Source: a virus. Taken from it: 64,000 nucleotides of DNA. Position numbers and translations under genes: made by a program. Below the pieces are notes generated by a model. It ran no database searches, was not told the DNA's origin, and saw only the letters and a list, made by a program, of their open reading frames with translations. The stretch covers positions 64,001 to 128,000 of IMG/VR virus record IMGVR_UViG_3300044213_000170. The stretch is one strand, 5' to 3'. Shown piece after piece: positions 8,311-34,471 of this stretch (within the stretch, counting starts at the first letter, position 1; every line of letters begins with the position of its first letter).

Positions 8311-8440
8311 TAACAGATCAATTTGACAACATAACATAACATAATATATCATAATACGTAAATTGTTCGTCTCTTTACAGAGTGTGTTGTTAAATTGTCT
8401 TTACTAACTATTTATTAAAGAAAAATCTATCGTTAAAATT

Positions 8441-12308: not shown

Positions 12309-12871
12309 TTGATATTCCTTTTTGTAAAAAACAGTGAGTGTATGGCAAGTAAATAGCCGGACAATGTGCAATAAACATTATCAGGACCATTACAGCCGCT
12401 GTCGATAAGACAATGTGCAAAAGACAGTGATCTTAATTTTTCCAGGGTCAACAAACAAGGCTTTCGCCGTAATATAAAGCTGGGTCACTAAGATACGAGA
12501 GTAGTCATTAAAAGCCCTTTTCAAGAGGATTTTAACGTTTCGCTATCCCTAATCTCCACACACTAACCGGCTAGTTTTTAAAAACTAGCAAAATTTAATA
12601 ATCATAGTATATACTATAAAGTGTTAAGTTCATAATATTTTGGTTAAATTGATATCAATTTAACCAAATATAGGATTTGCAAGTAGTTCCGCCTCCCTCA
12701 TTCGGAACCATTTTACCAGTATTTTCTGTGAAGCCCGGGACTGGTTAGAGGTACGTATTAACAATAGTTACTTGAAGTTAATGTCGGTATCCCGATGCAT
12801 TTCTTCTCACAAGGTTTTCGACGCCTTGCTTTCACTACATATACACTTGCAAAATTTGTTGGTTTATTAAA

Positions 12872-12997
12872 CCATATAAAAATACACTCAATATCAGTTC
12901 CTTGCTGGCACAAAGATCCTTTCGCCCCTGCCAGGGGACCGAAGTAGTTACCGCTTTTAGGCACGGCACTTGCCCCGTCAAGCATACTTTTATATGG
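12872..12997 (-). ncRNA. Stem-bracketed small RNA, unit A
   Basis: 17-bp terminal stem CCAUAUAAAAGUAUGCU/AGUGUAUUUUUAUAUGG; G-U pairs work only on the minus strand. Confidence 0.55.
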
Positions 12998-13158
12998 CAA
13001 CAAACTAATGCGATGGGATTCGAACCCAACCCTGCTCCCCTTTCGGCAATTCATCCACCCCTGCAAGGGTTTCAACTCTGCGTACTCGCTTCGCTGTGCT
13101 ACCAGCACACCACACAACCTGTCACAATCCATTGCAGTGTCTTGTGAGCAGTCTTGTA

Positions 13159-13246
13159 CCATATAGAAACACACTACCTACGCTCTCAGTCGTAGCCCAC
13201 CCGTGGAACCTTCGATCAACTCCGGCCTAAGTGTGTTTTTATATGG
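13159..13246 (-). ncRNA. Stem-bracketed small RNA, unit B
   Basis: Stem CCAUAUAAAAACACACU/AGUGUGUUUCUAUAUGG. Confidence 0.55.
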
Positions 13247-13462
13247 TTAGTTCAAAGTCCCGATACAGGCATGACCCATATGACACTTTTTATCCGCTTA
13301 ACCGAGCCGGTGCGTTATTCACGGTGCGGCAAAATTAAGTTTCAGAACTAGCATATTTCTGGTCTGGGACTCGAACCCAGTGCGTGAACGGCTTCGCTTC
13401 AGGTAACGTTACCTCCTTAGCACTTACTAACACAGGTTAATTAAGCCAACTATTAAAGTTAC

Positions 13463-13549
13463 TGGTGAGACAGGTGGGGATCGAACCCACACGGGCATAA
13501 AGCCGCCAGATTAAAAGTCTGGTACCGCAACCATTTCGGTGTCTGTCCC
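13463..13549 (-). tRNA. tRNA-Lys(TTT) with atypical long variable arm
   Basis: Anticodon arm CCAGA-CTTTTAA-TCTGG, about 15-nt variable region, CCA. Confidence 0.8.
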
Positions 13550-13553
13550 ATAT

Positions 13554-13628
13554 TGGTCCTTGCTCAGAGAATCGAACTCTGTTTTTCCGGGTAAGAGCCG
13601 GGTACTTCGCCAGCAAAGTTTAGCAAGG
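13554..13628 (-). tRNA. tRNA-Lys(CTT), atypical
   Basis: Loop CTCTTAC, T-arm, CCA; non-standard position 8. Confidence 0.75.
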
Positions 13629-13723
13629 ATGGCTTGTATTAAAATTATCTTTAATGTCTCACAACTTATTAAAGAGTTCTTTAATGTGCCATCCCAAGAC
13701 CAATACGGAGTCTAAGGATGACA

Positions 13724-13747
13724 CTATCGTTTCGTTGAACGTTTCAT
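13724..13747 (-). promoter_or_regulatory. Mini leader ORF MKRSTKR-UAG followed by a hairpin (13686-13724)
   Basis: SD AAGGA, ATG at 13747, TAG at 13724-13726; sigma70-like promoter at 13775-13803. Confidence 0.6.
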
Positions 13748-13854
13748 GTCATTTCCTTTTGCGTTAAAAATATTATTATACAACTATCATGGTCAGTTGT
13801 CAACCGAATTTGTATGTGTTGTTTTCGCACAACACATAAAGCGGGGTCTGTTCT

Positions 13855-14226
13855 TTACTTCTTCAATGATTCTATTGTAGTAAGCAATTCCCTCCATAGC
13901 TTACTAGGATTTTCACCCTTATTAAAATCCATCAATGCCATATAAGTTTCTTGACTACCTTCTGGAATCTTGAAATAGATATTAGCATAGGTGTAATCAA
14001 AATCATCGTCTGCATCATGGCTGTACCATGGGTGTTCTGACATCTCATCAAAAACATCTTCATAGTCTTCACGGTTACCGCCACCATTACGTGTATGAAC
14101 AACAATGAAACCATCTTCCATATAGACATTACGAAAACGACCAAAGTCAGCCTTCGTCTTGCCTAACAAGGACAATAGCTTGTCACTGTCAGGATTCATT
14201 CCAAAAACTAGATTATACAATGACAT
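13855..14226 (-). CDS. Hypothetical protein
   Basis: SD AAGGAG, 123 aa, TRNGGGNR motif. Confidence 0.8.
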   Translation of the reverse strand: MSLYNLVFGMNPDSDKLLSLLGKTKADFGRFRNVYMEDGFIVVHTRNGGGNREDYEDVFDEMSEHPWYSHDADDDFDYTYANIYFKIPEGSQETYMALMDFNKGENPSKLWRELLTTIESLKK

Positions 14227-14245
14227 ATTGTCTCCTTTGTAAATG

Positions 14246-14321
14246 TGGTAGGTCTTACTGGAATCGAACCGGTGGTCTTCACCGTGTCATGGTGACGATT
14301 TAGCCTCTAATCTAAAGACCT
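14246..14321 (-). tRNA. tRNA-Val(GAC)
   Basis: Cloverleaf, loop ATGACAC, CCA. Confidence 0.9.
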
Positions 14322-14325
14322 ATTG

Positions 14326-14472
14326 TTAATCTAATCCGTTACCACTAGTGGATAAGGACGACTTTTGTTGTCTACGCAAAGCCTTATTAGTTTTGCGATG
14401 TGAACCTGCTTTTCTCATTAATGCTAAGGCAACGAAGCGGTTACGTTGCTTGACAATGTTTACTCGCTTCAT
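14326..14472 (-). CDS. Small basic protein (MKRVNIVKQRNRFVALALMRKAGSHRKTNKALRRQQ...)
   Basis: Manual translation, 48 aa, SD AAGGA upstream. Confidence 0.55.
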   Translation of the reverse strand: MKRVNIVKQRNRFVALALMRKAGSHRKTNKALRRQQKSSLSTSGNGLD

Positions 14473-14491
14473 TATGTTTCCTTCATTAAAT

Positions 14492-14567
14492 TGGTTGCAG
14501 AGGAGGGAATCGAACCCCCGACCTCCAGGTTATGAGCCTGGCCAGATACCGCTTCTAACACTCTGCG
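14492..14567 (-). tRNA. tRNA-Met(CAT), initiator-like
   Basis: C1:A72 mismatch, CAT anticodon, CCA. Confidence 0.88.
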
Positions 14568-14587
14568 ATTCTATTTATAAAAATACT

Positions 14588-14664
14588 TGGAGGTCTGGGT
14601 AGGATTTTAACCTACGAATCAACTGGTTTGCAATCAGTGCCATTAAACACTCTGGTACCAGACC
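14588..14664 (-). tRNA. tRNA-Cys(GCA), atypical T-loop
   Basis: Loop TTGCAAA, U73, T-loop TTAAAAT. Confidence 0.8.
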
Positions 14665-14670
14665 ATAAAA

Positions 14671-14740
14671 CTATTATGAAACACACTAACCCGCTTGGCT
14701 ACCCTAAAAAGGACCGCGCTTCCAATGCGTTTTACAATAG
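14671..14740 (-). ncRNA. Stem-bracketed small RNA, unit D
   Basis: Stem CUAUUGUAAAACGCAUU/AGUGUGUUUCAUAAUAG. Confidence 0.5.
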
Positions 14741-15635
14741 TGCCTAAGGTTGAGATTACACCTTAAGCCAACAGCACCTCGAGCATTATAGTACGCCTTG
14801 CGAGCATACCTTCTCTCGACATCCACATAAGCCATTGCTGTACCTATGTCTGCTATCAGCATCGCCGTTTTAAGTCAGGCAGTAGACTTGACATCATATG
14901 CTATTCTACGCTTTCTATCCCGTTGAACTTGCGGTCCATTAAGCCTTGCGAGCTACGAAACTTCTTGCATAAACAGTTTTTACCTTGCGAGTTACGACTG
15001 ACTGAATTACCTTGCGGCTCCAGTATTAGATGCTTTTCACATATGACCGAGGCAGTCTTTGCATTTTAATCGTTAATTGGATTTGAACCAATAGTCGACT
15101 CCTTAACAGGGAGTTGCGTTACCATTACGCTATAACAACCTACTGCGATGAGCTGCCTCTGTTGCTACACAATCTTTTGGACTGCATAATACAACTCACC
15201 ACGTACCTTTTGTCTTGCGGACTACTCAGTCGTCTTTTGCGATCATTGTCGGGTCTCGGCTTTCGCGTACCTCCAACAACCACTCAAACTGCATACAAGC
15301 CCTTAGGTGCAACCCCTTGGACAAGTATACTACCCTTTCTCATACCAAATAACTGAATTGGTTTCGTAGTGAAGTCAGCACCACCTGTTACTTTCCATCT
15401 ACTCAAGTTCCCATCCGTCGAAACTTCAGGCTTGTAAGCAGACGTTCTTTCCACTACATTCAGCGTCTCTGTTACCACCACCGGTCTTATCAGTGATGGG
15501 CACCTCGCGGTGCTGAGCAGGCTTGTTTATCTGAACTATTACTAGCGGACTTATGTAGGCATACATCCTTTGGCTCCATCGCTGGAGTTATTCTTCGTAA
15601 ACGGCAAGCCGCCTACAGGACAATAAACTGCCCTA
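14740..15635 (-). ncRNA. Large structured ncRNA, probably GOLLD-type
   Basis: About 900 nt without a credible ORF inside a tRNA array; many CGCAAG (GNRA) hairpins; 3' hairpin containing GUAAUCUCA; family assigned from recall, not from a search. Confidence 0.65.
15068..15139 (-). tRNA. tRNA-Asn(GTT)-like cloverleaf embedded in the large ncRNA, no CCA
   Basis: GTTGTTA/TAACGAT acceptor, D-arm GCGT-AATGGTA-ACGC, ACTCC-CTGTTAA-GGAGT, T-loop TTCAAAT. Confidence 0.65.
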
Positions 15636-15845
15636 AAATCTTGTTTGTTCTGTGTCTTGCACTATTTGCCTAACTCAACAGCTTTACTCGAGTTTACTGT
15701 TTATTGCGTCGGTTACATAACGCTTGATCATGCCTCTGTGCTTGCAAGGCACAGAACAAACAAGATTTACAAAATTTACTTTTTAAAGAACAAACTTAGT
15801 TAATTTCTAACTAAGAATCTATTGTAGCAAATTATATAAAATTTG

Positions 15846-16022
15846 TCAACCTATGGGGCTTTTGACGATCCAGCCCAGTGCATGTAAGTTCAAGAAAGTA
15901 CTCCACATAGTCATTGCAAACAATCCGATTTTTACAACAATGTTTAACCAGCCCCTGGTGCTCCAGCGCACCAAGAAATAGGTAAAGATCATGCCCGACA
16001 CAGCGAAATACCAGTTAATCAT
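15846..16022 (-). CDS. Small membrane protein (MINWYFAVSGMIFTYFLVRW...)
   Basis: Manual translation, 58 aa, two hydrophobic segments, own sigma70-like promoter. Confidence 0.55.
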   Translation of the reverse strand: MINWYFAVSGMIFTYFLVRWSTRGWLNIVVKIGLFAMTMWSTFLNLHALGWIVKSPIG

Positions 16023-16094
16023 TTGAAAGCGCCTTTAGTTAATCAATACGAATATTATAGTCCCAAAACGATTTATAGTCAACTTGGTTTTATA

Positions 16095-16130
16095 TAGTAC
16101 TAAAGTACTAGTACTAGTACTTTAGTACTA
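16095..16130. repeat. Perfect 36-bp palindrome built from five AGTACT units
   Basis: TAGTACTAAAGTACTAGTACTAGTACTTTAGTACTA is its own reverse complement. Confidence 0.9.
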
Positions 16131-16135
16131 AATTT

Positions 16136-16210
16136 TGGCCCGGCGTACAGGAATCGAACCCATATTCGTGGTGTAGAAGACCACTGTATTATCCATTATA
16201 CTAACGCCGG
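16136..16210 (-). tRNA. tRNA-Arg(TCT)
   Basis: Cloverleaf, loop CTTCTAC, CCA. Confidence 0.92.
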
Positions 16211-16214
16211 ATTC

Positions 16215-16290
16215 TGGTGGTCGGAAGAGCACTCGAAGCTCCACATTCCTCCTTATGAGGGAGGCTCTCTTCCTCTTAAGATATCCGACC
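16215..16290 (-). tRNA. tRNA-CAT (Met or Ile2)
   Basis: Loop CTCATAA, CCA. Confidence 0.85.
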
Positions 16291-16472
16291 ATAATATTTG
16301 TTAAGCTGGCTCACTTTGAGCACCTTCGTCCTCCACGGACGCTAGTCTTATGCCATCCTTGTTGAATCAGTCTCCGCAGGGCCCATTGGCTACCTATCAA
16401 CAATTCATCGCGTCCCTTGCTCGTACCCGTCGGTAATTACTCAGGCTTTCGTTTAAACTACAGCTTAACAAA

Positions 16473-16580
16473 TATCATATAGAAACACACTGGTGTCCTT
16501 GCTCCTCCAGGATGACACTCCTGTCCAAATGAGGTTTATGACCGGCTTGTCGATCAGCAACAATGTGTTTTTATATGATA
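16473..16580 (-). ncRNA. Stem-bracketed small RNA, unit C
   Basis: Stem UAUCAUAUAAAAACACAUU/AGUGUGUUUCUAUAUGAUA. Confidence 0.55.
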
Positions 16581-16744
16581 TCGAAGATGGGAATCGAACC
16601 CACTAACTACCGGTGCGATGCCGGTTGTGCTACGCTCATTATACAACAAGTTTGTTCCGTTTGCAACCGGACTCGCTATATAACTTGGCACTAACTTTCC
16701 ATGTCGTTTTCTTCATTACCATATAGAATGTGTTTTTATATAAG

Positions 16745-16822
16745 TGGAGCACAGGGAGGGATTTGAACCCCCGGTTTTAGGGATTTGCAATCCCTTGCAT
16801 TGGGCCACTCTGCCACCTGTGC
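16745..16822 (-). tRNA. tRNA-Cys(GCA)
   Basis: Cloverleaf, U73, CCA. Confidence 0.93.
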
Positions 16823-16830
16823 ATATTTTA

Positions 16831-16906
16831 TGGTAGCGACGGTGGGACTCGAACCCACGATAAACTCCGTATGAAGGAGGTACATTAGCCGCTATGCTAA
16901 ATCACT
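16831..16906 (-). tRNA. tRNA-Met(CAT), elongator-like
   Basis: Loop TTCATAC, CCA. Confidence 0.85.
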
Positions 16907-16913
16907 ATATTTT

Positions 16914-16989
16914 TGGTGCCGCCTCCCGGGATCGAACCAGGTTCCATGGATTTTCAATCCACCGCAATGACCACATTTGCTAAAGCGGC
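16914..16989 (-). tRNA. tRNA-Phe(GAA)
   Basis: Cloverleaf, CCA. Confidence 0.93.
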
Positions 16990-17148
16990 AATGTAGATCG
17001 GGAGCCTAACTATCCTCCTGGGAGGACTCGCTAGATTGTCTCGAATAGGCAAGTTTATCTACCACGAATAGCCATCTGTTGTTGTCGCATAGCTAAGTCA
17101 CTATGCTAGGCTAGGTGGGACTCAAACCTATCGTCTATCCCTTAAACT

Positions 17149-17223
17149 TGGGGTATCGTACCAGGATCGAACTGGTGATAGCGGAATCACAACCCGCGGT
17201 TTTACCACTAAACTAACGACACC
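17149..17223 (-). tRNA. tRNA-His(GTG)
   Basis: G-1:C73, loop TTGTGAT, CCA. Confidence 0.93.
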
Positions 17224-17231
17224 ATATCAAT

Positions 17232-17308
17232 TGGCGCGACTGGAGAGATTCGAACTCCCGACACCTGACTTCGTAGGCCAGTACTCTATCCAACTGAGCT
17301 ACAGTCGC
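17232..17308 (-). tRNA. tRNA-Arg(ACG)
   Basis: Cloverleaf, CCA. Confidence 0.95.
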
Positions 17309-17314
17309 AAAAAA

Positions 17315-17391
17315 TGGCCCGCCCTGACGGACTCGAACCGCCAACAACTGATTTCGAAGACCAGGACTCTATCCAGTTGAGCTAAAGGCGG
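17315..17391 (-). tRNA. tRNA-Arg(TCG)
   Basis: Cloverleaf, loop CTTCGAA, CCA. Confidence 0.93.
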
Positions 17392-17400
17392 TCTAAATAT

Positions 17401-17475
17401 TGGCAGGGGGTTAGGGAATCGAACCCTATCACCTACGGTCAAAGCGTAGTATCTGCTCCAATCGATTTACCCCCA
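17401..17475 (-). tRNA. tRNA-Gln(TTG)
   Basis: Loop CTTTGAC, unpaired 1:72, CCA. Confidence 0.85.
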
Positions 17476-17559
17476 ACTGATCTGAAGTGTTGCTTATTCT
17501 ATACAATGTACAATATAAGCAACAGTTTGTTGGTCTCGCATAATGCGAATTATAAAACT

Positions 17560-17636
17560 TGGCGACCCCGGATGGATTTGAACCACCGACATTTGGTTTT
17601 GGAGACCAACGTTCTGCCAGACTGAACTACGGAGCC
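17560..17636 (-). tRNA. tRNA-Trp(CCA)
   Basis: Loop CTCCAAA, G73, D-stem GTTC/GAAC, CCA. Confidence 0.95.
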
Positions 17637-17643
17637 ATTAAAT

Positions 17644-17734
17644 TGGCGGAGGGCTAGAGAGTCGAACTCTAAAGGCGCTATTAACGCTCGGCGGTTTTCA
17701 AGACCGTTACCGTCACCAATCGGCTTGGCCCTCC
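17644..17734 (-). tRNA. tRNA-Ser(TGA)
   Basis: Long variable arm, loop CTTGAAA, CCA. Confidence 0.9.
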
Positions 17735-17860
17735 ATTTTGTGATTGTCGTTACGGGGTTTACCGTACCTGAAACTAGTCCCACCGCTTGCCAATCTTACT
17801 GAATGGACCTATAGACTTATGTGGCGCTTCCGTGCATTCTCATTACACTATGACAAAACT

Positions 17861-17938
17861 TGGCGCAGACCAAAGGACTCGAACCTTTGCGGGAATCTAG
17901 AATGCGGAGGACATGCCCCCTACCCCTCCATTATCTGC
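17861..17938 (-). ncRNA. tRNA-like RNA with acceptor stem, T-arm and CCA but remodelled D/anticodon half
   Basis: GCAGAT/GTCTGC-GCCA and GGTTCGAGTCC present; no canonical anticodon arm. Confidence 0.55.
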
Positions 17939-17945
17939 ATTAACT

Positions 17946-18021
17946 TGGTGCCGTCGCCATGAATCGAACACGGGACCTTCTCATTACAAGTGAGTTGCTC
18001 TACCAACTGAGCTACAACGGC
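17946..18021 (-). tRNA. tRNA-Thr(TGT)
   Basis: Cloverleaf, CCA. Confidence 0.95.
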
Positions 18022-18030
18022 TTTAATAAA

Positions 18031-18109
18031 TGGCGCACCGTACGAGATTCGAACTCGTGATCTCCGCCGTGACAGGGCGGCGCCTTAGGCCAGACTGAGC
18101 TAACGGTGC
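18031..18109 (-). tRNA. tRNA-Asp(GTC)
   Basis: Cloverleaf, CCA. Confidence 0.93.
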
Positions 18110-18114
18110 AAATT

Positions 18115-18190
18115 TGGCGCTCGGTAGGGGAATCGAACCCCTCTTCCCGCCGTGAAAGGGCGGTGTCCTAGACCGATAGACGAACCGAGC
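18115..18190 (-). tRNA. tRNA-Glu(TTC)
   Basis: Cloverleaf, CCA. Confidence 0.95.
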
Positions 18191-18272
18191 ATAATATCTT
18201 GAGACGGTGGAATCAAACCACTCTAGTCAGCATCTTCTCTGTGAAGATGCCCGTAATCATACTCCTCAAAAT

Positions 18273-18339
18273 ACTATATGTAAGTACACTACTCATCGGC
18301 TGTGCCATTTGACTGTTCGGCAATGTACTTGCATATAGT
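18273..18339 (-). ncRNA. Stem-bracketed small RNA, unit E
   Basis: Stem ACUAUAUGCAAGUACAUU/AGUGUACUUACAUAUAGU. Confidence 0.5.
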
Positions 18340-18455
18340 TTAGGGCTGTGGTCACTTTCGACTTAACATTTAACTAAGGCTTTCTTTATGCATTTATATC
18401 CTTAGCACCCTTCTTAAACATTATTATAAAAGAAAATACTTTTATTGTCAACTAT

Positions 18456-18541
18456 GTAGTGGATGCGGTTGGAGTCGAACTTACTCATCCGAAGAAACTG
18501 GGTTACAGCCAGCCACACCTCTCCAACTGTGTCGCACTTCC
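18456..18541 (-). pseudogene. Degenerate tRNA-Tyr(GTA), paralog of the adjacent gene
   Basis: Shares D-loop and variable-arm sequence with 18549-18634; broken T-stem, no CCA. Confidence 0.7.
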
Positions 18542-18548
18542 ATTAATT

Positions 18549-18634
18549 TGGTGGGTAAGGATGGATTCGAACCAACTCATCCGAAGGAAAGAGATTTACA
18601 GTCTCCCGCGCCTCTCCAACTGCGCCGCTTACCC
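18549..18634 (-). tRNA. tRNA-Tyr(GTA)
   Basis: Long variable arm, loop CTGTAAA, CCA. Confidence 0.92.
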
Positions 18635-18714
18635 ATAGTACATATTATATCGAAAAAAATAATTTTCGTCAACTAAAAAAAAAATAGCCGTAAACTTGTT
18701 AAGGCTATTTTGTT

Positions 18715-18789
18715 TGGTGGAGGATAGCGGGGTCGAACCGCTGACTGAAGCTTGCAAAGCTACCGTGTTCCCAACTATACCAATCCCCC
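18715..18789 (-). tRNA. tRNA-Ala(TGC)
   Basis: G3:U70, loop TTTGCAA, CCA. Confidence 0.93.
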
Positions 18790-18800
18790 CGATAACTTAT

Positions 18801-18974
18801 TTATTCTTCTTTGCCACGCTTGGTGGACTTTGCCAACCGATTATTAGTTTCAATCATCTTAGTATACATTTTGAAATACTCGCGACGATCGGTATTGTTT
18901 AAAATCCTTGCAGCACGGCGCTTAACCGCTTTAGGCATTTTTATTGCTTTAATGTCATATCCTCTACAGGTCAT
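18801..18974 (-). CDS. Small basic protein (MTCRGYDIKAIKMPKAVKRRAAR...)
   Basis: Manual translation, 57 aa. Confidence 0.55.
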   Translation of the reverse strand: MTCRGYDIKAIKMPKAVKRRAARILNNTDRREYFKMYTKMIETNNRLAKSTKRGKEE

Positions 18975-19049
18975 TTTATTTCTTTCAAAAATAATTAATT
19001 GTAGTTCAGTGTCCTCAGGTTTATCACTGATGTTTAGACGTTCAGAGCC

Positions 19050-19200
19050 GGACTTCCTAACGTCGAGTTCTTCCAGGACTTGTTACTCGGGCTACTAAGC
19101 CAGGTGCTCCTTTTCAGCTACCGCCCAAAATGGACAGTGGGGAGTTGAACCCCCTCCTGCTTTACACTAGTTCAACGTTCGAACATCTTACTAATGTGCT
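19050..19200 (-). ncRNA. Y-RNA (YrlA)-like RNA with a permuted tRNA-like domain
   Basis: T-arm, closed acceptor-like hairpin and D-like arm in that order, enclosed by a helix with one bulged pyrimidine. Confidence 0.5.
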
Positions 19201-19224
19201 TTTCACTTGCTAACACTACAAACT

Positions 19225-19300
19225 TGGTCTCCGTAGAAGGATTTGAACCTTCACCGCATGGTCCCAAACCATGAACGCTACCGGGTTACGCTATACGGAG
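19225..19300 (-). tRNA. tRNA-Pro(TGG)
   Basis: Cloverleaf, loop TTTGGGA, CCA. Confidence 0.93.
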
Positions 19301-19731
19301 TTTATACTTTTCAACATAATCGTCTATAATGGGCTGAACCTCATTAACATAACGACTATGAACATAACTATGATGTGTAGGACATAAAGGAACTAAATTC
19401 GCAGGTTCATTGTTATCATGGTTGTGATCGTGATGATGCACTGCTACAATTTTATCTTCCTCACACACTACACACTTTTTATCGTGGTGTAAGAAGCAAA
19501 TGGATTGATACTTTTCGCCCTTCCAATTACCGTTACTTTCACCACTTCTAAAATGCTTGTTTGAACAACTTCTACTGCAAGTACCTTTAGAGTTCTTGAA
19601 GTCCTTAATAGGGGTCGAACATACTATACATTCTTTTATATTAACAGGATTTAGATAACAATTATCCTCGTGCCGTTTAATATTTTGTGGTTCGTTTCTT
19701 TACCGCAGTATTGACAATTAATATGTTTCAT
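19286..19731 (-). pseudogene. HNH homing endonuclease with a 1-nt frameshift near 19690
   Basis: MKHINCQYCGKET... then, in another frame, NIKRHEDNCYLNP...CSRSCSN...CVVC...VHHHDHNHDNNEPANLVPLCPTHH; stop lies inside tRNA-Pro. Confidence 0.75.
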
Positions 19732-19800
19732 ACATTTATTTATCATTTAGCGCACAGAATGAGATATTCTCAAACAGACTGCTCTACACTCCGAAATCTC

Positions 19801-19876
19801 TGGTAGGACGTGACGGTCTCGAACCGCCGACATTCACGGTGTAAACGTGACGCTCTACCAACTGAGCTAACGTCCT
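19801..19876 (-). tRNA. tRNA-Val(TAC)
   Basis: Cloverleaf, CCA. Confidence 0.95.
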
Positions 19877-20029
19877 ATATCTTTTACTTATGTTTATTAT
19901 ACAGACACAAATAATAAATGTCAAATAATTTTTGCAATTTCCGGTGCAAAAACTGCACTTGCAAATGCTATATAAAATAATAATATCAACATACTCTAAT
20001 CCTCTAGACTATAGTATATTTAATATGTA

Positions 20030-20103
20030 TGGAGCGGAATATCAGAATCGAACTGATGACGTCTGCTTGGAAGGCAGTGGTTTTACCATTAAACTAATCC
20101 CGC
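20030..20103 (-). tRNA. tRNA-Gly(TCC)
   Basis: Cloverleaf, CCA. Confidence 0.95.
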
Positions 20104-20113
20104 ATTTTATTCT

Positions 20114-20190
20114 TGGTGCCTTGACCTGGATTCGAACCAGGGACCTACGCCTTATCAAGACGGTGCTACTACCAGCTGAGCTATCAAGGC
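20114..20190 (-). tRNA. tRNA-Ile(GAT)
   Basis: Cloverleaf, CCA. Confidence 0.93.
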
Positions 20191-20195
20191 CAATT

Positions 20196-20280
20196 TGGTG
20201 CCCCCCAAGAGACTCGAACTCTCACGCCTTGCGGCGCTGGAACCTAAATCCAGTGCGTCTACCAATTTCGCCAAAGGGGC
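20196..20280 (-). tRNA. tRNA-Leu(TAG)
   Basis: Long variable arm, CCA. Confidence 0.95.
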
Positions 20281-20289
20281 AATGATGTT

Positions 20290-20366
20290 TGGCTCCTCGA
20301 CGTGGGCTCGAACCACGGACATCTTGATTAACAGTCAAGCGCAACTACCAACTGTGCTATCGAGGA
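20290..20366 (-). tRNA. tRNA-Asn(GTT)
   Basis: Cloverleaf, CCA. Confidence 0.95.
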
Positions 20367-20415
20367 ATAAAATTCAACAGTATATATTATATATGCGATA
20401 TAAATTTGCTGTCAA

Positions 20416-20516
20416 GTATTTTAGAACACACTAGTGATTCGACCTAGTAAATGGGCCCGCCACAATAGTTTATCGTTCTATCGGCCGAGTTATTCGTCTA
20501 ATGTGCTCTAAAATAC
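20416..20516 (-). ncRNA. Stem-bracketed small RNA, unit F
   Basis: Stem GUAUUUUAGAGCACAUU/AGUGUGUUCUAAAAUAC. Confidence 0.5.
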
Positions 20517-20693
20517 CTTCTTATTAAGAAGATATGTTAGGGTTGTACCCTAACCAGTTATCTGTACTTTGCTGTTATCGCCAGCATTTCATCCAACTGT
20601 CCGCCCATTTGTCACATTTTATATGGCGTTGTGTGCTGGCTCGCGTTGCCTTATCACGCCGAAAATTAACAATAGTCAATTTTCTTTTTACAT

Positions 20694-20728
20694 AAACAAA
20701 AACCCCAGGGTGTTTAATCCTGGGGTCC
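20694..20728 (-). terminator. Intrinsic terminator of the putative attenuator
   Basis: GGACCCCAGG-AUUAAACAC-CCUGGGGUUUUUGUUU. Confidence 0.85.
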
Positions 20729-20751
20729 TTAGAGTGGTTGTAGTGTTGTTT

Positions 20752-20895
20752 TTACGCTACAATGTCCCCCTGGACCCCGATCTTAATCTCCGGTGTACGA
20801 TCATTATGATTTCCAGTAACCATACACCAAGAGGCAGACATCGCCTGTCTCTGTTTGGCATAAAAGTTTACTGATGATGATAAAATCGTGTTCAT
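20752..20895 (-). CDS. Putative attenuator leader peptide containing all 20 amino acids
   Basis: MNTILSSSVNFYAKQRQAMSASWCMVTGNHNDRTPEIKIGVQGDIVA*; contains GGGGUCC, complementary to the terminator 5' arm. Confidence 0.7.
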   Translation of the reverse strand: MNTILSSSVNFYAKQRQAMSASWCMVTGNHNDRTPEIKIGVQGDIVA

Positions 20896-20905
20896 GATGT
20901 TTTGT

Positions 20906-20934
20906 ATTATATGTTATTTATACTTTGTTGTCAA
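20906..20934 (-). promoter_or_regulatory. Consensus sigma70 promoter with an embedded TATAAATA
   Basis: TTGACA-N17-TATAAT ending 10 nt before the leader ATG. Confidence 0.85.
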
Positions 20935-20975
20935 GAAGTTTTGATTATGTTGTAAAAATACAACAAATTAAAATT

Positions 20976-21060
20976 TGGTGCGCCTAGCCGGAATCGAACC
21001 AGCATGACCGAAGTCGGGAGATTTTAAGTCTCCTGTGTCTACCTATTTCACCATAGGCGC
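20976..21060 (-). tRNA. tRNA-Leu(TAA)
   Basis: Long variable arm, CCA. Confidence 0.95.
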
Positions 21061-21129
21061 ATTTGTTTTGCAATAACTCTATTGTAGCAATATTTCTATT
21101 TATTGTCAACAATATTTTGTTGTTATTTT

Positions 21130-21221
21130 TGGTACCAGCGGAGGGGATCGAACCCTCTCAAGAACGCTAATCTGGCGCTAAAAGTCTTATAAGGACTCTC
21201 TGACTTCCAAGTCTCGCTGGT
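21130..21221 (-). tRNA. Atypical tRNA with TAT (Ile) anticodon and long variable arm
   Basis: ACCAGCG/CGCTGGT acceptor, tiny D-loop, loop CTTATAA, CCA. Confidence 0.75.
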
Positions 21222-21226
21222 AAAAC

Positions 21227-21303
<77 letters not shown>

Positions 21304-21320
21304 GATTTTTCTATTATATG

Positions 21321-22295
21321 TTATTCTGCATTTATTGTCAATGACAAATTATTTATTGCATCTATCTGCTGAAATCGTAAATCCATCTTAGTAAACATAG
21401 AAGTATCTTGTTCGATTAAAATGCATCGACGATTTTTGTTAGATGCAGCAATACCAGTGCTTCCACTGCCCGCAAAAGTATCCAACACCATATCACCAGG
21501 TTTGGATAACAATTCAATAAAGTACTCTAACACTTCAGTAGGCTTTTGTGTGGGATGAATTTTATCTTTGCCCAATCCGCCGCTATAGGTAATTGTGTTA
21601 GGAATAACACATTCGATCAATCCGTTTGATCTTTTGCGATCAGCCAACATCTTTTTACTATCAGCTAATGCCTTAGCAAACGCCTTGTCGATTGGTATAC
21701 CTTGAGAGATATATTTGTATACGATACTGCTGACTTTGTCTGCCGCCGCATAACGCTCAACCATAGATCCTTCAGTCGCATCTGCATTAAATGTTCTAGA
21801 GCCCTTGGGTTTAATGCCGAACAAAACGTATTCACAGCCACTTACTGGATTTACTCGACGATTGAATGGGACTGCTGCAGGTTTTTTCCAAGTCCATACA
21901 CGCTTAGACTCAAACCCAGCGTCGTTCATTGCGGTAATGAGATAACTTAAATATCTATCACTGATAAAAATTGCAAAACTTCCGCCCTTACGAAGTTTTG
22001 TAAACCACATCCTTGCCCAATCATTTAACTGTTGTTGGAATTCTTCATGACCAACATCGTCCCAGTCGTTATCAAATTCTTCACTGAAATTTTGATTATG
22101 GATTGTTGTTTTATTTTTGCCGGTTTCCTTGTCGAGCCAAATTGGATTTGCACCGTTTTTACTGATATTGTAAGGCGGATCTGTCAACAACAAATCAATC
22201 GAAGAATCGGGTATTTGATGTGCAATTGTCAAACAATCGCCGTTTAATCTAGTAATCATAAATGTGATTATACAATAATTTGGATTTATTGTCAA
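21321..22295 (-). CDS. DNA amino-methyltransferase (N6-A/N4-C, beta class)
   Basis: DPPY precedes HPTQKP and DTFAGSGSTG. Confidence 0.92.
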   Translation of the reverse strand: MTINPNYCIITFMITRLNGDCLTIAHQIPDSSIDLLLTDPPYNISKNGANPIWLDKETGKNKTTIHNQNFSEEFDNDWDDVGHEEFQQQLNDWARMWFTKLRKGGSFAIFISDRYLSYLITAMNDAGFESKRVWTWKKPAAVPFNRRVNPVSGCEYVLFGIKPKGSRTFNADATEGSMVERYAAADKVSSIVYKYISQGIPIDKAFAKALADSKKMLADRKRSNGLIECVIPNTITYSGGLGKDKIHPTQKPTEVLEYFIELLSKPGDMVLDTFAGSGSTGIAASNKNRRCILIEQDTSMFTKMDLRFQQIDAINNLSLTINAE

Positions 22296-32747: not shown

Positions 32748-34471
32748 TTTTGCACCTTTATACTCTGATATTCTTTATATACATTTTCACGCATTGCTAA
32801 CGGATTATCGCTAAATCTTGCAGCGCCGTGTTTATGCATAGTTTTCTCTTGCCCGGCAACTTCTCCGTTACCGCCTTTTAATTGAACATCTGTATTAAAT
32901 ACTTCTTCCTCGGGGGTATTTGCTAATTCCTCTTCATTTGGTTCATCAACAGTATCATTAGCTTCAATTACCGGGTACTCTTTTCCATCGACTTCAAATG
33001 AATCTTTGTGCTGTGCTTTAGCTTTAGCCAGTTTACCGCTGAATTCGTTGCCCTCTTCCATATCTTCTTCGTCGGCAACCTCAACTTCAACAGGTTGATA
33101 TACTTGTTGTGGCTGACTATTACCCAATCCTGCCAATTTCAATAACTGTGCTAACTTAACCGCTTCATCACCTTCTGCATTAACGCTAACATTTTGGTGG
33201 CCGTCATTGTCCATATTCATGCTAATACTAGTATGTCCTTCTTCGTGGCCGCCCTCACAACCACATTCCATCATACCACATTCTTGACATACCTCTGACT
33301 CTTCTTCATTGCCAGTTTCTTCTACCCCGGCTAGTTTTAACATTTCGTCTAGTTCGGTATCATGTTTTGGTTTTTTTCCGGTCTGAGGAAGATTCAATTT
33401 CTTTTGCATTTGTTTGATCATCTCTTCGTCGCTGGGATGACCTAACGTATCTAATACTTTCTTACCTGTTTTTTTTGCTAGGTCGGCAACTGTACCTGCA
33501 ATACCTTCGTCGGCTAAACTACGCTCATATTGATCCGTATAGTTTTCAAATGCACTTTTCTTAGGACGACCACGGCCGCGCTTAACTACCGTTACGTTTT
33601 CGCTGTCATCAGTTTCACCTGTCTTAGGATCATACTTACGTGTATAAATCGTGCCACCGGTTGTTGGGTCTGCTTTCTTATCAAACTTTCCAGTGCCTGC
33701 ATTTGTACGGGATTTGACTGATTTCATCATGTCTTCCCAACCTTCAGAAATTTGTTCTGTAGTCATACCGCTATCGACTAAAGTTTTAACAGCAGCAATG
33801 GCTTCTTCTACTTTACCTGCATTGTGTGCCTTCCAAGCGGTGGCATAAGCAATAGATTTTTCTTTTGGTGTTAGTTTACCGTCTTTAGCATATGACTTCT
33901 TAATATGTTTAACCATGCGCTCTGCTTTTGCTCCTGGTGGTGCAACTTCTGCCATCTCACCTTCTACCTTTGGCAAATTCTTTAACATAAATGATTTAGC
34001 TTGACGCTGTTTTACGTTTTTCATTTGACGCATAAATTCTTGTTCAGGCTCATCACGATTATCTAGATCATCAAAATCATAATCAGCAGCACGATTCATA
34101 GCATCATAGGCTTTATTAATAGAACGATTTGCTAGACGATCATAGTTTTTAGCACGGATCTTGTCAACAATACCTTCTTCGACGCCTTGCTCTTCGCCTA
34201 GTTTTTTGCCTGCGGCGGCGGCGTGCTGGAATTTTTCTTTGCCGTATTTTTTACGTCCAATACTTGCTGCAACTGCTTCGGGATCTTTTGCCCCGCCTGC
34301 TTTAGCTGCGGCAGCGACTTTCTTAAAGCCCATATATTTTTCATTTAACTGACCCTCCACGGTTTCCATATTTTCCGCCAATTTAGATTTGGCTTTTGGT
34401 GTTTCTGTTTTAGGCTGTGCGGCTTGTTCGACTGCGTGTAGCTTATTCAAAATATCATACATATTATTCAT
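32744..34471 (-). CDS. Hypothetical charged modular protein (scaffold/internal-protein-like)
   Basis: 575 aa, repeated (V/L)xE junctions, LKLAG twice, AT-hook-like KRGRGRPKK. Confidence 0.7.
   Translation of the reverse strand: MNNMYDILNKLHAVEQAAQPKTETPKAKSKLAENMETVEGQLNEKYMGFKKVAAAAKAGGAKDPEAVAASIGRKKYGKEKFQHAAAAGKKLGEEQGVEEGIVDKIRAKNYDRLANRSINKAYDAMNRAADYDFDDLDNRDEPEQEFMRQMKNVKQRQAKSFMLKNLPKVEGEMAEVAPPGAKAERMVKHIKKSYAKDGKLTPKEKSIAYATAWKAHNAGKVEEAIAAVKTLVDSGMTTEQISEGWEDMMKSVKSRTNAGTGKFDKKADPTTGGTIYTRKYDPKTGETDDSENVTVVKRGRGRPKKSAFENYTDQYERSLADEGIAGTVADLAKKTGKKVLDTLGHPSDEEMIKQMQKKLNLPQTGKKPKHDTELDEMLKLAGVEETGNEEESEVCQECGMMECGCEGGHEEGHTSISMNMDNDGHQNVSVNAEGDEAVKLAQLLKLAGLGNSQPQQVYQPVEVEVADEEDMEEGNEFSGKLAKAKAQHKDSFEVDGKEYPVIEANDTVDEPNEEELANTPEEEVFNTDVQLKGGNGEVAGQEKTMHKHGAARFSDNPLAMRENVYKEYQSIKVQK

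Follow-up and report, generated by a model that had tools for sequence, protein, structure and literature searches.

A conserved terminal stem encloses variable inserts in the tRNA arrays of phages

The window analysed here is a stretch of 64,000 nucleotides (nt) that spans positions 64,001–128,000 of the IMG/VR virus record IMGVR_UViG_3300044213_000170, a 145.4 kb viral contig from a freshwater metagenome assembly that is about 42% complete and that has jumbo phages of about 360 kb as relatives. On its minus strand, from about position 21300 down to 12500, lies a dense array of RNA genes, and within this array six units (U1–U4, U6 and U7, referred to as clamp units) each consist of a long terminal stem closed over an insert. 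At least 245 such units are present in at least 120 phage loci of IMG/VR, and they make up a phage RNA family that is real, widespread and apparently undescribed. On balance, the sequences make it probable that the units give rise to stable small RNAs excised from the tRNA-array transcripts, with the stem serving as a shared processing and stabilizing module.

ARAGORN finds 34 tRNAs in the window, all of them on the minus strand and 31 of them within the array, where several further tRNA-like elements escape tRNA finders. The ten promoter-like sites in the array that agree with at least 11 of 12 consensus positions are likewise all on the minus strand. A preliminary description of this DNA had listed at least six units with differing payloads and one collapsed remnant, dispersed within tRNA transcription units on the minus strand. 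The described terminal stem folds in all six, their inserts are mutually unrelated, and units are found only in tRNA arrays. The features concerned are

12871–12998, minus strand: U1, clamp stem with a 92 nt insert, three G–U pairs that are valid on the minus strand only and an A–U pair at position 7
13158–13247, minus strand: U2, canonical clamp ACCAUAUAAAAACACACU ... AGUGUGUUUCUAUAUGGU with a 54 nt insert and A·C at position 7
14670–14741, minus strand: U3, 36 nt insert, starting 6 nt past the 3′ end of the GOLLD match and stopping 6 nt before tRNA-Cys
16474–16579, minus strand: U4, 70 nt insert, directly after a tRNA-like T-arm element (16581–16650)
16718–16744, minus strand: collapsed remnant, a full 5′ arm that runs straight into the outer portion of the 3′ arm, adjacent to the tRNA-Cys 3′ end (tRNA at 16745–16822)
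18273–18339, minus strand: U6, 31 nt insert, variant stem (ACUAUAUGCAAGUACAUU...) with C·A at the family mismatch position
20415–20517, minus strand: U7, 67 nt insert, variant stem that is fully paired and contains G–U pairs

In the RNA sense, which is that of the minus (tRNA) strand, the stem reads 5′-(NCC)AUAUAAAAACACAYU...AGUGUGUUUCUAUAU(GGU)-3′ or, with its outer pairs, 5′-(N)CCAUAUAAAAACACAYU-insert-AGUGUGUUUCUAUAUGG(U)-3′. Its length is 17–19 bp: there are 16 conserved pairs, which two or three outer pairs from NCCA/UGGU extend to 18–19 bp. Among 41 non-redundant units 93% of the stem cells are paired and 13 of the 18 pairs show two-sided changes. None of 500 shuffled controls reaches the observed values, and pairing falls to 29–61% when the partner columns are slid against each other. 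Position 6 is A–U in 172 units, U–A in 41 and G–C in nine, while position 15 is U·G in 170, C–G in 46 and U–A in 14. Position 7 holds an A·C mismatch in 152 of 230 units (G–C in 30 and A–U in 16). In the window this mismatch lies at the same place each time, 10 bp from the inner end, as A·C in U2, U3 and U4 and as C·A in U6. The wobbles of the stem pair only in the tRNA sense, which shows selection on a folded single strand and not on a double-stranded DNA site. The compensatory changes, the minus-only G–U pairs and the A/C mismatch in four units had all been noted in the preliminary description, and each is borne out here.

A covariance model of the stem, a step that the preliminary description had proposed, was trained on 41 units of other phages and on no sequence from the window. 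It recovers five of the window units at E values from 2e-11 to 4e-6, each with a higher score on the minus strand: U2 (56 bits, E = 1.8e-11), U3 (41.2 bits versus 15 on the plus strand), U6 (40 versus 28 bits), U4 (38.6 bits, E = 3.9e-7) and U7 (34.7 versus 12.1 bits, E = 4e-6). The collapsed remnant is a weak match (15.6 bits, E = 0.2), and the scan of the 64 kb window gave no other match at E below 1. U1 is missed by the covariance model and was recovered by a combined position-weight and pairing scan, which gave 0 matches in shuffled sequence; its predicted fold has an energy of −46.2 kcal/mol on the minus strand versus −31.3 on the plus strand. The minus strand folds with the lower energy in five of the six units. 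The exception is U2, where the plus-strand fold is slightly lower (−28.3 versus −27.4 kcal/mol). The 9-mer AAACACAYT alone occurs six times in the window versus 2.8 expected, which is not significant; the evidence for the units comes from the paired arms of 16–18 nt and not from this 9-mer. When all 145 kb of the record are scanned for either arm, arms with a partner are confined to the array. Extra copies at 8381–8395 of the window and at 33651–33665 of the genome have no partner arm and were dropped.

Our main sample of related loci comprises IMG/VR contigs that hold the exact 16-mer of the 3′ arm (at least 120 loci, with about 1 Mb, precisely 1.04 Mb, of sequence sampled), and all family-wide tallies per 120 loci or per 230 or 245 units rest on it. 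In 114 of these contigs the partner arm is 4–140 nt away. The loci are dense tRNA arrays with 1978 tRNAs over the 1.04 Mb, and in every locus all tRNAs (2012 in the tally by strand) are on the strand that matches the RNA sense of the stem, equivalent to the minus strand of the window. They fall into 92 megablast (nucleotide) clusters with 34–48% G+C, across which the stem sequence itself, beyond its pairing, is near-invariant. Inserts inside the units are 4–247 nt long, with loops of just 4–9 nt in some units of other phages, and kilobases separate units. Five complete genomes of 160–176 kb hold one to four units each, clustered within a few kilobases. Many of the unit-bearing phages are T4-like, with genes for RegA, the clamp loader gp44/62 and DsbA near the arrays. 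A second sample, which is independent of the stem, consists of 41 syntenic jumbo-phage loci found via a neighbouring protein (57–81% identical); 15–16 of these 41 loci carry units, all scoring best on the gene strand.

Outside phages the stem is virtually absent. In 185,579 species genomes, matches to the two-arm pattern are limited to two short freshwater contigs of metagenome-assembled genomes (MAGs). One of these (L122, binned as Candidatus Planktophila) carries three units in only 1.5 kb and is therefore probably a phage fragment binned with the MAG, a binning that may serve as a host hint; the other (L123) is a Komeilibacteria MAG contig end. A CRISPR array can be set aside, as it had been in the preliminary description, on account of the inverted arms, the irregular spacing and the essential absence of the stem from the species genomes. 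No unit matched Rfam at the gathering threshold or at E values up to 1 in a scan of positions 12400–21400. A near-threshold match to Dicty_Class_I_RNA in one locus (L028) is an unrelated hairpin. Blastn of U2 against the cultured phages of INPHARED at E values up to 10 gave no match, with a low-complexity filter that may mask AT-rich arms. A full-text literature search for the arm sequences found no paper, and the literature on GOLLD mentions tRNA islands and not the clamp hairpins.

In 134 of 230 units (about 60%) the stem starts exactly on the CCA of a called tRNA, which is tRNA-Lys(UUU) in 65 cases, tRNA-Gln(UUG) in 27 and tRNA-Glu(UUC) in 17, together 109 of the 134. A further 49 of the 230 stop at G1 of the tRNA that follows, which is mostly tRNA-Met or tRNA-His. 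Where neither a called tRNA nor another unit lies upstream, 45 of 92 units still begin with NCCA, the end of a non-tRNA element. Units can also stand in tandem with spacers of about 5 nt, in runs of up to five or six without a canonical tRNA between them. The stem couples the trailer of one RNA with the leader of the next, and the units, packed in the manner of tRNA genes, therefore behave like regular constituents of the RNA-gene array. In the window, U6 lies about 85 nt downstream of a promoter that matches 12 of 12 consensus positions (18451–18423), and the end of U7 coincides with the start of the −35 box of the next promoter (20415–20386).

A second regular neighbour is the GOLLD RNA:

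14747–15202, minus strand: GOLLD RNA 3′ domain (Rfam RF02032, 223 bits, E = 6e-62), which encloses tRNA-Asn (15068–15139)

A unit follows 3–7 nt after GOLLD in six of seven loci, including the window, and in the seventh a tRNA takes its place. The start on the upstream CCA, the frequent end at G1, the regular place after GOLLD and the spread among lake phages go beyond the preliminary description. GOLLD and the units share a niche, the tRNA arrays of lake phages, and are physically adjacent, whereas the Rfam model does not extend to the units, which are small hairpin RNAs in their own right. On the minus strand GOLLD extends over 14747–15850: a probable variable 5′ domain runs up to a promoter with 11 of 12 consensus positions (15849–15821) and holds a 26 bp hairpin (15636–15661 with 15743–15768). 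An unannotated GOLLD-like stretch with 67% identity to that of the window is also present in the Sinorhizobium phage Phosso of 469 kb (L124:9001–9314; record positions 33567–33880), the only cultured phage in which such a match was seen, and no clamp unit was found near it.

The inserts of the 245 units fall into 166 families. In multi-member families the loops are conserved and the stem changes are compensatory. The insert of U1 is about 85% identical to one in another locus (L090), with an inner stem that is altered and yet still paired. The insert of U2 recurs in three loci (L003, L125 and L126), identical over about 46 nt save for four of the eight bases of one apical loop, while the sequences that flank these units are unrelated. 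The preliminary description had taken the payloads to be more than neutral spacer, and for alignable families, to which U1 and U2 alone belong in the window, sequence comparison indicates that the inserts are indeed under selection, unlike spacer. A BLAST search with the six window inserts against the 41 syntenic jumbo-phage loci found no relatives, which indicates that inserts turn over quickly while the stem persists; exact-word searches with the inserts of U4 and U7 likewise brought up no relative. The inserts are enriched in words that resemble a T-loop (GGUUCGA) or a D-loop (GGUAGC). The T-loop-like word is present in 17 of the 166 families, often 4–8 nt ahead of the 3′ arm, and GNRA tetraloops occur among the predicted hairpin loops.

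The preliminary description had read the units as a cassette system that releases guide, antisense or decoy RNAs. A stem-closed family with unrelated inserts in tRNA transcripts is what we find, and that part of the claim stands; the proposed role gains no support from the sequences. The longest exact complements of the window inserts to transcripts of the phage itself measure 9–12 nt, which is not above chance (shuffled sequences give a mean of 10–11 and a maximum of 12–14 nt). The 7 nt loops that fit YUNNNRN are mostly T-loops, and mimicry of anticodon loops is no general feature.

From the structure, strand, junction geometry, conservation, modularity and distribution described above we infer the cleavage enzymes, the stability of the products and their possible activity in trans. 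Each unit would be the gene for a small structured RNA that is co-transcribed with tRNAs and GOLLD from the minus-strand promoters. The stem would be the common scaffold, formed by the 3′ trailer of the upstream RNA, from N73-CCA onwards, and the 5′ leader of the RNA downstream, which pair and thereby bracket the insert. The long AU-rich duplex with its conserved A·C mismatch would be cut by a double-strand-specific nuclease of the host, with RNase III as the most plausible candidate. RNase P would cut at G1 of any tRNA that follows, and exonucleases would trim the upstream tRNA back to its CCA. The inner 9–10 bp would remain on the insert as a nuclease-resistant clamp, so that the stem would both direct the processing of its neighbours and give the released RNA a stabilizing, possibly protein-binding, handle. 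The inserts would be the functional, fast-exchanging part, and those with T-loop and D-loop motifs that resemble the tRNA elbow may act as Y RNAs or tRNA mimics in the contest between phage and host over tRNAs.

Host RNase III, RNase P and 3′ trimming would together be the most economical processing route. RNase III acts on duplexes of about two helical turns, and with 18–19 bp the stem has this length. Searches for an RNase III gene in the 145 kb of this phage and in 23 unit-bearing phage records, seven of which are at least 90% complete, found none, and the host enzyme is therefore plausible. The stalks cut by RNase III in rRNA operons and T7 early transcripts are similar in that a duplex of about two turns with an internal mismatch flanks a mature RNA in a polycistronic transcript. 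They differ from the clamp in that they are conserved in pairing rather than in sequence and enclose one fixed product. In phage T4, two small stable RNAs (rnaC and rnaD, or species 1 and 2) abut tRNA-Arg in the tRNA cluster, the processing of which involves RNase III. As small non-tRNA RNAs that lie 1–6 nt from a tRNA 3′ end or from each other they resemble the units. They are, however, two fixed RNAs with different folds, as opposed to a shared scaffold with more than 160 inserts, and the covariance model finds no clamp stem in the T4 tRNA region (68–76 kb).

Several points weigh against excision as small RNAs. No RNA sequencing run is listed among those that contain this stretch. RNase III has little sequence specificity and so fails to explain the near-invariant sequence of the stem, which is an indication of a sequence-specific partner. 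The existence of units with loops of 4–9 nt implies that the stem may act without an insert. Finally, relatives are known for only two of the six window inserts (U1 and U2) and not for those of U3, U4, U6 and U7.

A further proposal, which we hold tentatively and consider clearly less probable than excision as such, takes the stem as a universal adaptor specific to phages. Its invariant, mismatch-bearing helix would be read by a partner with sequence specificity, whether a protein of phage or host or the GOLLD nanocage itself, and the array would become a platform that expresses and delivers a large and quickly changing set of structured effector RNAs, for example tRNA mimics, decoys or inhibitors of host defences that target tRNA. 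Phage tRNA arrays are now regarded as counter-defence loci against host nucleases that cut tRNA. If the stem is such an adaptor, it would define an RNA-cassette system without a described counterpart. The near-invariant sequence of the stem predicts a specific binding or cutting factor. No universal partner gene was identified among the genes examined. The arrays in any case carry a large hidden repertoire of structured RNA: the sampled sequence of about 1 Mb yields at least 166 families of inserts, all behind one conserved stem and next to the enigmatic GOLLD, and the stem is a simple search key for such arrays in metagenomes. Should the inserts act in trans, they would represent a major unexplored class of phage non-coding RNA with a built-in pull-down handle, and the stem would possibly be a natural scaffold for the expression of stable small RNAs.

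We think it rather unlikely that the units partner a Ro60-type protein in the manner of Y RNAs, with the conserved, mismatch-bearing stem as docking site and the insert, tRNA-like in some units, as effector module, an arrangement that would tie the array to RNA quality control or repair. A Ro60-like protein of 470–480 amino acids (Pfam DUF2828 and DUF7788; PHROG 850 'RNA-binding protein'), to which the Pfam TROVE model is blind, is encoded inside the array in 12 of 120 loci (L020:2091–3527, L028:10840–12258 and ten further loci). An AlphaFold model of this protein (pLDDT 70) has the Ro60 of Thermus phage phiLo as its top structural match (E = 6e-8, TM 0.55) and also matches D. radiodurans Rsr and human Ro60. 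A unit stands directly behind the gene in L028, L069 and L094 and a collapsed one does so in L020, although this adjacency amounts to about two independent arrangements. Y RNAs (YrlA/YrlB, Yrn1 and Yrl1/2 of phiLo) similarly combine a 5′–3′ terminal stem that contains a helix irregularity with a variable, sometimes tRNA-like module (PMC4201824, PMC12135203), and the T- and D-loop-like motifs of some inserts parallel YrlA (PMC4201824). The motif bound by Ro/Rsr on the 5′ strand of the Y-RNA stem is GNCGAAN0-1G (GGUCCGA in animals; PMC4201824). The clamp stem, in contrast, lacks a GNCGAA or CGAA motif, the full motif is found in only six of 158 insert representatives, and the Rfam scan of the array at E values up to 1 gave no match to a Y-RNA family. 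Most complete unit-bearing genomes also lack a Ro60-like gene: among the seven that are at least 90% complete, one has a DUF2828-type gene and none a TROVE gene, and six of the 23 related records have either type. Neither was found in the 145 kb of this phage, where at about 42% completeness absence is unproven.

Other genes recur with the arrays. In T4-like lake phages, a PF04308 (YkuK-type RNase H-like) gene stands in or beside the array, in 34 of 120 loci and in 16 of the 23 long records (for example L017:2976–3629); it was rejected as a universal partner, being missing from one complete genome and from the 145 kb of this phage. It is accompanied by genes for a metallophosphoesterase, a dual-specificity phosphatase and an AAA_33 kinase, which suggests a theme of RNA end-healing or repair. 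Some arrays include genes for a PNK-like kinase and phosphoesterases, which also fit the link to Ro60-mediated quality control.

Equally doubtful is the notion that the stem acts chiefly in cis, as a punctuation hairpin for the maturation or insulation of tRNAs and GOLLD, which sequesters the CCA and sets cleavage sites while the inserts are passengers. It fits the start of the stem at CCA and its stop at G1, the strong bias towards sites behind the tRNAs for Lys, Gln and Glu (109 of 134), the empty units with loops of 4–9 nt and the position of units behind GOLLD, an RNA that itself lacks a 3′ processing signal of the tRNA type. It does not account for inserts that keep compensatory changes and loops while their flanks diverge, for the places where as many as five or six units succeed one another uninterrupted by a canonical tRNA or for the many tRNA–tRNA junctions that do without a hairpin, these being the majority (854 spacers of at most 12 nt in the same arrays).

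The units might also be mobile or recombining cassettes at the DNA level, with arms that are terminal inverted repeats like those of miniature inverted-repeat transposable elements (MITEs) or homology blocks for the swapping of inserts during co-infection, and with an incidental RNA fold. We give this a lower probability still. In favour of this reading, 35 of the 49 multi-member families are seen in more than one flank context, 49 different inserts stand behind tRNA-Lys(UUU), and syntenic sites of related jumbo phages carry differing inserts. DNA contigs from four freshwater metagenome runs are short and interrupted at the arms, and clean filled/empty alleles were not found among them. Like the Correia elements of Neisseria, the RNA hairpins of which are cut by RNase III, the units are short and dispersed, have inverted-repeat ends and form hairpins in transcripts. 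MITE copies, however, have a common internal sequence, many contexts, both orientations and target duplications. The units have unrelated internal sequences, are restricted to tRNA arrays, where they share the orientation of the tRNAs, and are flanked by an extension of the palindrome (NCCA/UGGU) rather than by a direct repeat. There is no transposase-like gene among the 20 commonest annotated families of neighbouring open reading frames (ORFs), and compensatory arm changes with one-strand G–U pairs are the signature of selection on an RNA fold and not of a transposase site. Inserts probably do shuffle via the arms, but as a by-product of the repeats rather than as their purpose.

That the units are decayed tRNA genes with acceptor stems that are similar by chance is very improbable: the T-loop-like word in 17 of 166 insert families and an inner 7 bp that can be read as an acceptor stem point this way, yet most inserts are 30–60 nt long and without tRNA arms, neither ARAGORN nor the Rfam tRNA model (RF00005) calls any unit, the inserts bear the marks of purifying selection and the 17–19 bp stem is far better conserved than pseudogenes would be.

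Further features of the array were recorded alongside the units. An apparently broken HNH endonuclease gene fragment (19286–19740, minus strand) lies inside the tRNA array between tRNA-Val and tRNA-Pro. A near-perfect 42 bp palindrome of GTACT-type repeats (16092–16133) closely follows a promoter that matches 11 of 12 consensus positions and closely precedes tRNA-Arg; it is a possible operator or protein-binding site. On the minus strand of the window there are also G+C-rich stretches with T-arm-like motifs of the GGGTTCGAA type, none of which is called as a tRNA by ARAGORN or Rfam:

12998–13158, 13340–13460, 16581–16650, 17000–17149, 17840–17945, 18195–18270, 18460–18545 and 19130–19220, minus strand: uncalled G+C-rich stretches with T-arm-like motifs

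These may be non-canonical or permuted tRNA-like RNAs. The stretch at 19130–19220 gives a faint match to the end of tmRNA, and related arrays also contain, at L049:812–1112 and L001:926–1123, a tmRNA of the permuted type (Rfam RF04321, 98 bits) as well as a group I intron (57 bits).

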